A stretch of 59,792 bases of DNA, the filler included, from Bipalium vagum (lineage: Eukaryota): assembly GCA_037834085.1 (NCBI GenBank). It is 3 parts of 3 records of this genome, joined end to end, with 100 filler letters (N's around TTAATTAATTAA, not from the genome) between each part and the next. Parts side by side here need not be neighbours in the genome. Positions count along the whole stretch, not along the records: positions 22,163 to 42,598 come from JBBMKC010253287.1; 2 more parts are not named here. One strand, 5' to 3'. The position numbers were made by a program, and so were the translations under genes. Shown in pieces: positions 23,140-37,075 of this stretch (positions are counted from its first letter, which is position 1; each line of letters opens with the position of its first letter). The notes beneath the pieces are model-generated. The model saw only the letters and a program-made list of their open reading frames with translations, was not told the origin of the DNA and did no database searches.

Positions 23140-23309
23140 GTGAGATCAAGTACCATCAAAAAAATAATTAAATTTTCGTAAAGTATTTCCCTGAAGAATA
23201 TATCTGAAGATCTGAATTGTAAAAGTTAATTTAATTTTGGTACTACAATTACATTTAAGTTTTCTGAACGCGAAAAGACATCTGTCCGTTTGACAAGGAG
23301 ATATATAAA
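23140..23309 (+). promoter_or_regulatory. Promoter module of peptide gene 1
   Basis: GTGAGATCAAGTACCAT 23140-23156, TTCCCTGAA 23187-23195, E-box CATCTG 23279-23284, TATATAAA 23302-23309. All four recur in the same order upstream of the two paralogues. Confidence 0.7.
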
Positions 23310-23351
23310 TTGAAGATTTATTAATTTTATTATATTATTATTATTATCACA

Positions 23352-24001
23352 ATGAACGTAAGTCTCCGGGTTTCTTAAATAATTAATTCATAATTTTGGA
23401 AGATAATTAAATTATTATCATTTCATTGTAATTTGTTATTATTTTATTATTTATTATTTTTAATATTAAATATTTTTAAATATTATTATTTTAATAAAAT
23501 TTAATCTATACTGAATATTTAATTTTTATTTAATTGTTTTAATGGTAGTATCAACAATTTGATGATTAACTTAATAAAATATTTTAATTAAAACCTCTAG
23601 AAATTAAATAGAAATAATTCTATTAATATATTATAAAAAATAAATAAATAAAAGAAATTTAAAAGAAAATTTATTTTTATTTTTTATTATTTTAAGCTAA
23701 TTTTTAAAAATGTTGTGATGAAAAATCAACAATTCACACAACCTTTATTCAATTTCAGTTTGCATTTATTATGTAATTTTTTCAGAAAGGTTTCTTCTTG
23801 TTCGTATTGCTGTCCATGCTGTATTCAATAGAAGGTTTTGATATAAGGGAGGAGATCGGCAGACTTTTCAGTGATTGTACCAAAAAATGCGTAGAAGAAG
23901 GATGGGAATGCGCTAAAAATTGCAGCTGGTACGACTTAAAATGCAAATTTACATGCGTTAGTAATGGTTTTGACTGTCACGATAAATGTAAAAAGACTTG
24001 A
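23352..24001 (+). CDS. Secreted 8-Cys peptide 1 (73 aa; exons 23352-23357 + 23786-24001)
   Basis: ATG AAC|GTAAGT ... ttttcAG|AAA, phase 0. Product MNKGFFLFVLLSMLYSIEG/FDIREEIGRLFSDCTKKCVEEGWECAKNCSWYDLKCKFTCVSNGFDCHDKCKKT: signal peptide plus four CX3C units. Two paralogues nearby; AATAAA downstream. Confidence 0.88.
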
Positions 24002-25999
24002 TGAGTTATAATGATAAAATAAAAAAAAACTTTTAATTATTAATTTTTTTAAAAATAAAAATATTATGTGTTATTATATGTAATAAAAAAAAGATTTTTT
24101 TTACTGATGCCCGTAAATAAAAATAACTTTATGAAAAATTTTTGTATTCATTATATATTTAAATCAATATTTATTTAAAACATTTAAACAAAGTTTTTTG
24201 GATGTGAAATAAATATAAATAATGAGAAATTAAAACAAATTAAAATTTTTTAATTAAAAAAAATTATGAAATTATATTTTTTCAGAAATATTTACAAACA
24301 GACAAATAGGAAACATTGAAATATTATGAAACCTAAACCTTGTTGTAATCAAATTCAGAAAATATTAATAATTATAATCAAATACAATAATCAATAGATT
24401 TTCTTGATAATTTTTTAAATCAATAAGAAACTAATGAAATTTGGTAAAGGACACCAATAATGACCGGGTCATCTATATTTGGATTTTATTAATCAATTTT
24501 GGAATTTCTTTTAGTTATAATTTAATCCAGTAGAAAGAATTGCAAGATAAAATGATGATTAATGAAGAAATTGAACTAATAATTAAATTAGTTATGAATG
24601 AATAAAACAAATATTATAAAAATTTTATAATTAATTAAAAATAAATAAACAGATAAGTCAAAGTTGGTGTGATTTGTTTTTCACTTTTAGAAATATTTTA
24701 GAAATAAATATTTTTTTTAGAAATATATTTGAATTTTTGATTAATTATTTATTTTAATTAATTTAATTTAATTATTTAAAAATTATTTTAAACTCTGAAT
24801 TTTAATATTTTTTTTCTTTATTTATTATTGATTTTTATTAATTTATTACTGATTTTTTATAATAACTTTATTTTTATTTTTGATTAATCTGTTTTAATTA
24901 CTTGATTAAATATAATTCAAAAACATTTACAATTTTATGACATTATTTTCATAAATGATAATTTGAATAAACAGCGCAGGAAATCGAGATCTGAGAAAAA
25001 ATTAATAAAGAATAATATTAATATAATAAATATAATAACAATAAAAAATATAATTTTAATACAAATTATTGAAAAACAGCCAAAATAAAAATTATAAAGA
25101 AAACAGAATTACTGTTTTATTTTGAAAATTAAGTACCGACTGTTACACGAGGCATTTGTAAGATATTGGAATTTTGAGGGTGCTTCATTTTGAACTTACT
25201 CCCGATGCAGTTCCATTAATTCCGATATATACTGTGAACAACTAAACCGAATCTTCGAAAAGCTTAAACAAGAATATCAAATACTGATTCGTCTAAATGA
25301 GGTCGTATATAAAAATGACACGAATTTTTGAAATATCCATCGTTTAGAAAAGTTGCTCTAAGAATGCCAATTTATAATATAATCAGATATTTAAATATAA
25401 GTAATAAGTAATTACCTAGCTACGCAGTAAAAACAAAAAAATACTTTCGAGTTAAATTATCATATTTTGCAAATCCGAAATTTGATACTTAATGACCCAA
25501 TAATATCACATAAAAGATTTTACCACATTATCAATAATATCACATTTTTAAAAGGTTATCCTAATTATTATAGAATAAAAATAAATTCATTTTCTTAAAA
25601 ATTCAGAAATATTTTTATAGAAAAATTATAATTTTCTCAATTAAGCCAAATGTTACTTAAAGAAAAATTGATCATCCACTGGTTCTGCTTTCTCCATGTT
25701 GTAAATTTATTTCAAACTTGAATTTTTTGTTAACTTGTGATCAAAAAATTTTCCTTTTTCTGTTTTTTTCAAAAATGCTCATTATCACTCAAATTCATTT
25801 TCATTTGCTTATTTTCTTAATTTTCTATAACTCGACGCGCGATCCAGAGCTTTTAATATTCTTAATCTTGGAAATGCTTGCTAATTAAAGGTGACGCTGT
25901 GTCTCGCTTGTGAATAGACGACCACATCAATAGAATTAAACTTTATATACAGTAATAGAATGTACTACTTTTGAAATCACAGTTTTGATTTTTTAAATA

Positions 26000-26140
26000 A
26001 AGTAAAACCTGTTTAAATTGAACACCACTATGTACCGACCAAATTATTTCAATTTAAGAGTTTCAAATATTAAAGGTGTTTAATCTAACAGGTTAAGTAG
26101 TATATAGTACAACACGGCTGTTCAATTTAGACAATTTCAA
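26000..26140. mobile_element. pogo/Tigger-type terminal repeat remnant
   Basis: agtaaaacctgtttaaattgaacacc...ttcaatttag repeats resemble pogo-family ends. Confidence 0.3.
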
Positions 26141-34528: not shown

Positions 34529-36490
34529 TCAGGATTTAATTATCCTTAATATTTTTACAGTTTTTTTGCACTCAAGACCTTTACTAAGACACTTAGCCGA
34601 ACATTTCAGGTCGTACCATTTGCAATTTTGGCTGCAATCCCAGCCCTCTTCTATGCACTCCTTGGTACATTGACTAAAGAGGCTGCCAATCTTTTCTCTC
34701 AAATCGAAATTTTCTACTGAATGAAGCATTGTTACCAGAACCAACAAAGCAACACCTTTCTAAAAAATATTATTTCAAAATTATAGATATTATATAAAGT
34801 TGAATTAGGTCTCGTCAATAAATTGACTTTATTTTATCATTAATCCCAACAAAAGCACGATTTCAGTTCATTATAAGTCGCTTCTGATAATGTTTAACTA
34901 ACAAAGATATATACAGTTAACCCTCTAAAGTTTTTACGCATTGTTTTTCAATAAATGTCACACTGTGGAAAATGGTGAGCTCCAGAAATGACACGTTGCC
35001 AAAATATGATATAAAAAAAACAGGCAGCCTTTCTTTAAAATCGTTTCTGCCTTTTCTGATCTTTCATTGAATACTTTTTGATGTCATCATTTTGTAAAAT
35101 AAATTATAAATTGGGTGTGGTTATCACTTTTTCAAAATATTTTTAATACCAATGCGAAAAGTCTGCATCCTTTTTGGAAGTTAACTTTCTTCGGATAAAT
35201 AACGTTGTTTAATATTGTGTCTTGCTTTAAACTTGTGAAGCGAACGAGTGATGATTTAAAATCTAAGATGATGTTAACAGCTGCAATCTCATTTTATTTG
35301 GCAAGTAAAATCTTATTAAAATAAAACACACCACGGTTTTCTATTAAATTACAAAAATCCAGGAGCTTTAAATCAATTAGCGGAAATTTGGGAGAGCAAT
35401 TATTGTTAAGAATTGATTCATTTTCTGAACTGAAATGAAATATTTCGTCTTTTTAATCGAAGAATTTTTTGATAGATTTTCTACTAATATTTTTCTTAAA
35501 ACTTTCTGAGAAAATTTTGCTTGGCTTACTTTTGGATGTTTTTTACCTAATCAAATATCCTTTTTTCTCCGTTATTAAAAGATATTTGCTTCATTTTTGA
35601 AGCATATTCATAGAAGTTATGAAAATTGTAGTCATTATTTAAACATTGTATACAGGCTGTTGCAAAACCAAGGAAAAAGTTGTTTTGTCTGTTAATTTTT
35701 TAGCAAACTATATTTAAAATGTTAACAAATGATTAAAGTAAATTTTGTTTAAATAATATATATTTATTAGAAATATGACTCATATTATGTGAGAGATATG
35801 CATATGATGCAAATTCAAATTCTCATTCAACTGCAATTAGGTAAATCAACACTGTAAATTAATATTATAAATTGATATATTGATGAAGAATTGATTTGAT
35901 GCTATCTGTAGAAGGAAAGCATTTTGAAAACATTTTATAGGACAACTATTGTATTCGATGTATTATATTTATGTCATTAATGATATAATTTTTTCGTCTT
36001 TTATTTATCGTTTATCTTTTTCCTTGGTTTTGGAAATACCTTATTTATTTGTGTTTAAGACTTTTCGTTAGCATAAAAAACTTATAGGATTTACAAAAAA
36101 TTATTGCGTAATACATAAACCATGGTACACTTTGGATATTGTAAACTCGATGAAAGGCAAACTACAAAAGAAATCGCCTATTTCTGTGAAGTAAACGCTG
36201 TAGAGATTTCAATCCAAGGCTTTTACAAGGCTGTAAACTTCAGAGATGGCAGACAGATGGCAAACGTCAGAAATGGTAAAACTTAGACGGTTGACTGAAA
36301 TTAAAAACATTTTTGAATTTTGTTTTAGTTTATCTTTTTTCTAAAAATTGTTTAAACGTTAATATTTTATTAAAAATAATAAAATTTTAAATTAACTTTG
36401 AATTTTTTTTCAAACTGGCAACGGTCATAAAATAAATTTTGAAAATAATAAATTTTATTTTAGACATTTTAAGAATCCAATTGTCTAAAA

Positions 36491-36555
<65 letters not shown>

Positions 36556-36854
36556 AATTGGTAATTTAAAATGAAAAATGTGCATTTTTTCTTTTAAAAA
36601 TATTTATTGATAAATAACTGAAATTAAGTTTAAAAATAATTTTTTATAATCCTATTATTTTATATATAATTTTTAAAATATAATTAAAAATTTAAAAATC
36701 ATATTTTATCCTTATATATTATGTTTCAAAAGAAAGTTTTTTTAAAATATTTTTTTAAAGAATTTTATTTACTTATTTTTATTAACACTATTATTAAAAA
36801 TATTAAATTTATTTATTTTCATTAATTATTAAAAAATAATACCTTAATATTCAT
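34529..36854 (-). CDS. Secreted Cys-rich peptide 3 (exons 36854-36843 + 34759-34529); eighth Cys lost by a 1-nt frameshift as assembled
   Basis: ATG AAT ATT AAG|GTATTA ... tttttAG|AAA GGT. Product MNIKKGVALLVLVTMLHSVEN/FDLREKIGSLFSQCTKECIEEGWDCSQNCKWYDLKCSAKCLSKGLECKKTVKILRIIKS. The shared promoter directly upstream supports the exon 1 assignment. Confidence 0.78.
34914..36297. mobile_element. Non-autonomous TIR element in the intron of peptide gene 3
   Basis: Ends CAGTTAACCCTCTAAAGTTTTTAC and GTAAAACTTAGACGGTTGACTG are imperfect inverted repeats; TA on the left flank. Confidence 0.6.
35653..36042. mobile_element. MITE nested inside the previous element
   Basis: CAAAACCAAGGAAAAAG (~35663-35679) and its reverse complement CTTTTTCCTTGGTTTTG (~36016-36032). 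Confidence 0.6.
36490..36553. repeat. (TTA)n microsatellite
   Basis: Direct reading. Confidence 0.9.
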
Positions 36855-36888
36855 AATAAATATAATAAAAAAATAAGGAATTAAAGCA

Positions 36889-37075
36889 CTTATATATTTT
36901 ATTTTTCAATTGAACAGATGTTTTATTGAATTTCAATAAAAGTTCTAAATTTTATTGATATTTATAAAGAAGATCAAATCTAAGAAATAAGATCTCGAGA
37001 ATATCTTGGAAAAATATTTTATGGGAAATATTTTCCAAACTTTTTAATAATTTTTTAAATGGTACTTGATTTCAC
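36889..37075 (-). promoter_or_regulatory. Promoter module of peptide gene 3
   Basis: Minus strand: GTGAAATCAAGTACCAT 37075-37059, TTCCCATAA 37027-37019, CATCTG 36920-36915, TATATAAG 36896-36889. Confidence 0.7.

Follow-up and report, generated by a model that had tools for sequence, protein, structure and literature searches.

Three clustered genes for predicted secreted cysteine-ladder peptides in Bipalium vagum share a four-motif upstream region that is probably an inherited proximal promoter

Conserved proximal promoters of tandem paralogues are known from phylogenetic footprinting among duplicates, where short motifs and their spacing are kept while spacers and introns diverge. The same pattern is found in Bipalium vagum (assembly GCA_037834085.1) in a window of 59,792 nucleotides (nt), i.e., the whole stretch of DNA analyzed here, in which a contig of about 20 kb (G000:C253287, positions 22163–42598) carries three peptide genes, each preceded by the same four motifs. 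These motifs are probably the best-kept parts of a proximal promoter that was copied together with the gene and is likely held by purifying selection. Different from the known cases, only three copies with one deep split are compared here, the sites are candidates, and no description of either the peptide family or the promoter module was found in the literature on flatworms. A cluster with tested control is that of the antimicrobial peptide gene nlp-29 in Caenorhabditis elegans, which, according to PMC11112505, is under the control of PMK-1 and the STAT-like STA-2, and whose members can differ in regulation. At both loci, paralogues for small secreted peptides lie in a cluster and likely share their control, possibly through STAT, whereas the peptides are unrelated and the STAT link in B. 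vagum is a consensus match. In Schistosoma, FTZ-F1 controls the oesophageal-gland gene meg-8.3, which likewise encodes a secreted protein of a flatworm and has TCAAG in an upstream site; however, the FTZ-F1-bound oligonucleotides of that study (PMC8673669) all bear AAGGT(C/T)A, a core lacking in motif 1 of the present locus.

The three genes follow a common plan, with a micro-exon bearing the ATG, a phase-0 intron and one further exon for both the hydrophobic leader and the cysteine ladder of C-x3-C-x6 type, the splice sites being deduced from the DNA sequence only (Table 1). The gene 1 product has a signal-peptide-like N-terminus and eight cysteine residues in the C-x3-C-x6 ladder. Identity to gene 1 at the exon 2 protein level amounts to 73% for gene 2 and 58% for gene 3, and the genes are paralogues encoding peptides predicted to be secreted.

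Upstream of each gene, motif 1, a motif 2 resembling the STAT consensus (GAS-like), an E-box and a putative TATA box (TATATAA) follow each other in the same order, and all twelve positions given in a preliminary description of this DNA were confirmed. Across the three copies, motif 1 has 14 invariant columns out of 17, motif 2 has 7 out of 9, the E-box 5 out of 6 and the TATA box 7 out of 7. For genes 1, 2, and 3, the gap between motifs 1 and 2 measures 30, 29, and 31 nt and that between E-box and TATA box 17, 17, and 18 nt, while the start-to-start distance from motif 2 to the E-box varies (92, 63, and 107 nt). Hence, spacing is fixed within each of two pairs and variable between them; the order and both pair gaps of the module proposed earlier stand, but it is not one rigid unit.

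The upstream regions of the three paralogues are homologous, and conservation ends sharply at motif 1. From this motif to the ATG, the regions of 176–221 nt align in all three gene pairs with z values between 8.9 and 16.8, and none of the 100 dinucleotide shuffles per pair and none of 100 Markov nulls reached the corresponding scores. Alignment exceeds background, and motif identity likewise exceeds that of the flank, with invariance falling to only 3 of 30 columns directly upstream of motif 1. Intron ends and flanks gave z values of -0.9 to 2.7 in the dinucleotide-shuffle test, and 400 nt upstream and 500 nt downstream align at null level in all six pair tests. The introns, previously regarded as not alignable, are so only for gene 3, as the score of 43.4 against gene 1 was reached by 28 of 100 nulls and the match to gene 2 is a bare AAT repeat. 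Between genes 1 and 2, in contrast, the introns can be aligned (191 of 258 columns; score 85.5 versus a null of 40.6 ± 5.4, reached by 0 of 100 nulls), and therefore the footprint rests on a single deep split, the one to gene 3.

For estimating the depth of this split, synonymous divergence (dS, Nei-Gojobori) gave 0.44 between genes 1 and 2 and 1.6–2.2 between gene 3 and the others, while 4/9 and 5/9 four-fold sites encoding the same residue differ from gene 3, equivalent to a divergence of roughly 0.7–1. Neutral decay was simulated without indels at gene 3 distances between 0.6 and 1.6 in 16 settings. A block like motif 1 emerged with P ≤ 0.015 in 14 of these settings and with 0.065 in the worst. 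Besides, among ungapped columns containing any G or C, 12 of 17 are invariant within the motifs, which were chosen post hoc, versus 3 of 52 elsewhere, and invariant G/C columns cluster beyond permutation at three window sizes (P 0.0005–0.003). Motif 1 is a solid footprint, and motif 2, the E-box and the TATA box are likely footprints as well; in the family, 13 of 13 examined genes have a TATA-like word at 33–54 nt upstream of the ATG. The GAS-like site and the E-box would beat neutral decay only if gene 3 split off long ago.

Several observations weigh against selection and give some room to a neutral leftover, i.e., shared ancestry that has not yet decayed and in which G/C-containing words stand out only because slippage and insertions replace the AT-rich sequence of spacers and introns more rapidly. 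The corrected distance between genes 1 and 2 is similar in promoter (0.35) and intron (0.44), and this pair therefore adds little to what is effectively a two-lineage comparison. Moreover, the silent-site estimates stand on about 35 sites, which are possibly unsaturated, and blocks like motif 2 and the E-box each reach P < 0.05 in just 5 of the 16 settings, arising neutrally with P values of 0.08–0.73 at a gene 3 distance of 0.6–0.8. TATA-like words are frequent in the AT-rich DNA of this locus, and gene 3 as assembled leaves the reading frame of genes 1 and 2 near its end, past the seventh cysteine, so that this copy may be decaying. Nevertheless, a purely neutral origin is unlikely, with motif 1 being improbable even in the most generous setting, invariant G/C columns being clustered, identity dropping immediately before motif 1, and the spacings of 29–31 and 17–18 nt staying constant beside a length spread of 44 nt between the pairs.

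In the preliminary description, the motifs were likened to NR5A, STAT and E-box or PTF1 sites, and the genes were regarded as a co-regulated battery, either of gland cells or inducible by STAT. In full, this would mean a reusable module of NR5A, STAT and bHLH (basic helix-loop-helix) or PTF1 sites that marks a wider set of genes. Two of the three motif 2 sites indeed show the perfect TTC-N3-GAA, genes for STAT, an FTZ-F1-like receptor and bHLH proteins are all present, and the schistosome gland gene mentioned above as well as planarian stat5, which rises during the response to double-stranded RNA according to PMC8797187, would fit such a battery. However, in genome-wide scans of the fragmented 441-Mb assembly, which covered exact patterns only, the composites recur nowhere beyond the three genes. 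The motif 1 16-mer matches three times and the composite of E-box and TATA box likewise three times, in each case at genes 1–3, versus 0 and 8 matches of the control and reversed control, respectively. A relaxed motif 1 gave 19 matches versus 13 in the control, and 0 of the 16 lying outside the locus, one of which offered just 76 nt to examine, had either a word of the GAS-like type at up to 80 nt distance or a downstream E-box plus TATA box. In addition, 10 promoters from more distant parts of the family all lacked both motif 1 (at up to three mismatches) and CAKCTG; they were scanned from 13 loci after dropping L048, L054, and L058 for lack of a located first exon and including two short regions of 60 and 142 nt. 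Within the gene family, each upstream element thus follows one branch. Such a pattern is predicted by inheritance but not by a reusable battery, and a module of the latter kind is quite improbable.

The individual factor assignments bear on this as well. NR5A/FTZ-F1 had been suggested for motif 1, but the core AAGGT(C/T)A is missing, with the sites reading AAGTACC or AAGGACC (TCAAGTACC or TCAAGGACC). In binding assays with schistosome FTZ-F1, 11 of 37 oligonucleotides were bound, all 11 bearing this core, while single-base variants were not (PMC8673669, S4 Table); the exact motif 1 sites of genes 1–3 are not among the oligonucleotides of that table. The fit of FTZ-F1 to motif 1 hence is poor despite an encoded FTZ-F1-like receptor (L024, one of 30 loci read of 69 zf-C4 matches; contig C194475). 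It has a CESCKG P-box and an FTZ-F1-box-like tail, the signature of an FTZ-F1-type receptor. A reading of motif 1 as a Pax or DR0 nuclear-receptor site, weighed from the consensus sequences, was not adopted. Similarly, the suggestion of PTF1 does not hold, since E-box and TC-box of its site must stand 1–3 helical turns apart according to PMC7197352, whereas the corresponding distance is 63–107 nt and variable here.

For motif 2, binding by STAT is plausible. The STAT consensus (GAS) is the palindrome TTC-N3-GAA, which is imperfect at gene 3 (TTCCCATAA) and is a common word, occurring 20 times in 20.4 kb with both strands counted. In the genome, a STAT-like gene on contig G000:C203566 is indicated by a STAT_linker match (E 3.3e-6, above the cut-off) followed by an SH2-like stretch, whereas the STAT_bind profile found no match in the genome, a further point against the preferred reading as the STAT call consists of the linker match and an SH2-like stretch recognized by eye. 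The invariant ATTTCCC of motif 2 also suits half-sites of RBPJ or Rel/NFAT. The E-box is found with the flanks RACAKCTGTY in 3/3 genes, and of 63 HLH matches in the genome 30 loci were read, several of which are class II bHLH genes. A class II bHLH protein is therefore a plausible E-box binder, with no single factor standing out.

Gene conversion homogenizing a promoter tract after duplication, for which the proximity of the copies, both tandem and inverted, within a single contig of 20 kb and the abrupt 5' limit of similarity might speak, is very improbable given the patchy conservation versus gene 3 with large indels between blocks and the mostly variable G/C columns of the spacers, unlike in a recent tract.

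An inherited promoter under purifying selection would hence explain the locus best. The promoter region would have been copied with the gene through two local duplications and then kept by selection. TBP binding to the TATA box would initiate transcription such that the leader is very short. A dimer of class II bHLH proteins at the E-box, fixed 17–18 nt upstream of the TATA box, could specify a secretory cell type, while the upstream pair of motif 1 and the GAS-like site that STAT may read, fixed 29–31 nt apart, might raise or induce expression. Co-expression and secretion of the three peptides would follow, with defence or the capture of prey as their likely use. Other branches of the family keep the TATA position and the micro-exon along with a different inherited upstream element. 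Of the co-regulation proposed earlier, a conserved proximal promoter common to the three genes persists, making shared regulation likely, without the parts assigned to NR5A, PTF1 and a wider battery. A footprint among duplicates is an ordinary result of gene duplication, where conserved promoters are expected. Its practical value lies in four short mutable candidate sites within a compact promoter from an animal group with few mapped cis-elements, one of them a possible direct target of STAT and another, of 17 nt, fitted convincingly by no factor. With regard to such use, plasmid reporters work in S. mediterranea, although promoters of differentiated cells gave no signal there (PMC13563047).

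Table 1. Positions of genes, upstream motifs and related elements, counted along the window.
Feature	Position	Strand	Description
Gene 1	23352–24001	+	micro-exon 23352–23357, intron 23358–23785, exon 23786–24001
Gene 2	28282–29224	+	micro-exon 28282–28287, intron 28288–29005, exon 29006–29224
Gene 3, inverted copy	34529–36854	-	exon 36854–36843 (4 codons), intron 36842–34760, exon 34759–34529
Motif 1, gene 1	23140–23156	+	GTGARRTCAAGKACCAT; 5' edge of conserved region
Motif 2, gene 1, GAS-like	23185–23195	+	ATTTCCC-W-K-AA; TTCCCWKAA starts at 23187
Weaker common block, gene 1	23254–23275	+	ATTTA..; missing from the preliminary description
E-box with conserved flanks, gene 1	23277–23288	+	RACAKCTGTY; CAKCTG starts at 23279
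Putative TATA box, gene 1	23302–23308	+	50 nt before ATG
Motif 1, gene 2	28106–28122	+	17 nt
Motif 2, gene 2	28150–28160	+	perfect TTC-N3-GAA; TTCCCWKAA starts at 28152
E-box with flanks, gene 2	28213–28224	+	CAGCTG, from 28215
Putative TATA box, gene 2	28238–28244	+	44 nt before ATG
Motif 1, gene 3	37059–37075	-	17 nt
Motif 2, gene 3	37019–37029	-	TTCCCATAA, imperfect GAS; TTCCCWKAA starts at 37027
E-box with flanks, gene 3	36911–36922	-	CAKCTG starts at 36920
Putative TATA box, gene 3	36890–36896	-	42 nt before ATG
Sister-branch TTCYGRTSACAGGAHG sites	G000:C136892, C220819 (two), C126334 (two), C236957, C98360, C205440, C163676, C51994		

The weaker common block lies within a 99-nt repeat shared by genes 1 and 2 at 79% identity. 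The intron of gene 2 contains an AT-rich tandem repeat (28326–28605) which gene 1 does not have. Between genes 2 and 3, two inverted-repeat pairs are located at 30394–30982 and 32339–33951 (43 nt, 88% and 39 nt, 90%), the second flanking a DDE_3 relic, and both pairs are remains of the Tc1/mariner type.

With regard to the peptides, a search with the gene 1 product found no homologues among 5.8 billion proteins, covering lengths of 39–125 only. The gene 3 product gave one distant lead, from which 13 further cysteine-ladder loci were retrieved, most of them with the same cysteine spacing. These loci, together with one degenerate copy, are L047–L058, L060, and L117; most show a first exon of four codons and a phase-0 intron as in gene 3, several encode strongly cationic peptides, and L050 and L056 are interrupted. 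Pfam assigned 0 families to the three peptides and only weak matches to the 13 family members, a B-IV-type family not being among them. A profile search of 1.84 billion representatives yielded 59 matches at E ≤ 0.001, mostly cysteine-ladder look-alikes, and the names of the 10 looked up were uninformative. The mature gene 1 peptide is modeled as a short helix plus a two-helix hairpin (H13–27, H34–53) at a pLDDT of 83. Top but non-significant match was the nemertean neurotoxin B-IV, with E 0.094 in the family profile search and E 4.0 at a TM score of 0.60 in Foldseek, while a wide fold search gave generic helical matches, none with Z ≥ 8, and neurotoxin B-IV was absent among the 50 matches listed. 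Neurotoxin B-IV/nemertide-beta (PDB 1vib; PMC6410017) is likewise a secreted peptide with eight cysteines and a two-helix hairpin, which is predicted here, whereas the loop cysteine spacing differs and the peptides from genes 1 and 2 have a near-neutral charge. The resemblance is likely due to convergence because the same cysteine ladder occurs in many unnamed proteins, and a toxin or antimicrobial role can be taken as a lead.

Sister-branch promoters carry a different upstream element, TTCYGRTSACAGGAHG, in 8 of 9 tested, a paired ETS-like site. Genome-wide, this element matches 11 times versus 2 in the control, and the three new matches comprise two family promoters and one unrelated site. 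Positions 23285–23301, in the interval between E-box and TATA box of gene 1, show a loose likeness to this element, either as a possible degraded vestige or by coincidence. A tentative, rather doubtful extension is that at least 16 secreted cysteine-ladder hairpin peptides, toxin- or antimicrobial-like, form an undescribed family whose branches have exchanged their promoter modules, with STAT-like plus bHLH in the trio and paired ETS-like in the sisters. If true, promoter replacement would have sent one peptide scaffold to different cell types or to immune-inducible versus constitutive use, and the 17-nt site of the trio would serve a factor without known motif.

Regarding the assembly, two COX1 sequences among L007–L009 are best translated with the mitochondrial code of flatworms (AAA=Asn, AGR=Ser; table 9) and are identical at only 753 of 949 nt, while the third in this set resembles that of another animal. 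Besides, many transcription-factor genes occur in close pairs. The assembly may contain the genomes of two flatworms or a single duplicated genome, in addition to DNA from prey, and the count of the peptide family could span genomes. In the other stretches of the window, a long open reading frame with an Ets domain (6250–7734, minus strand), a hydrophobic frame of 307 residues with no Pfam match (57107–58030, minus strand) and a gene for a myosin regulatory light chain (48738–49175, plus strand) were noted, the named matches of the latter including flatworms at about 69–70%. Together with the code of the best COX1, these matches identify the host as a rhabditophoran flatworm. Finally, L034 and L037 encode nuclear receptors with two tandem DNA-binding domains, a type known from flatworms.

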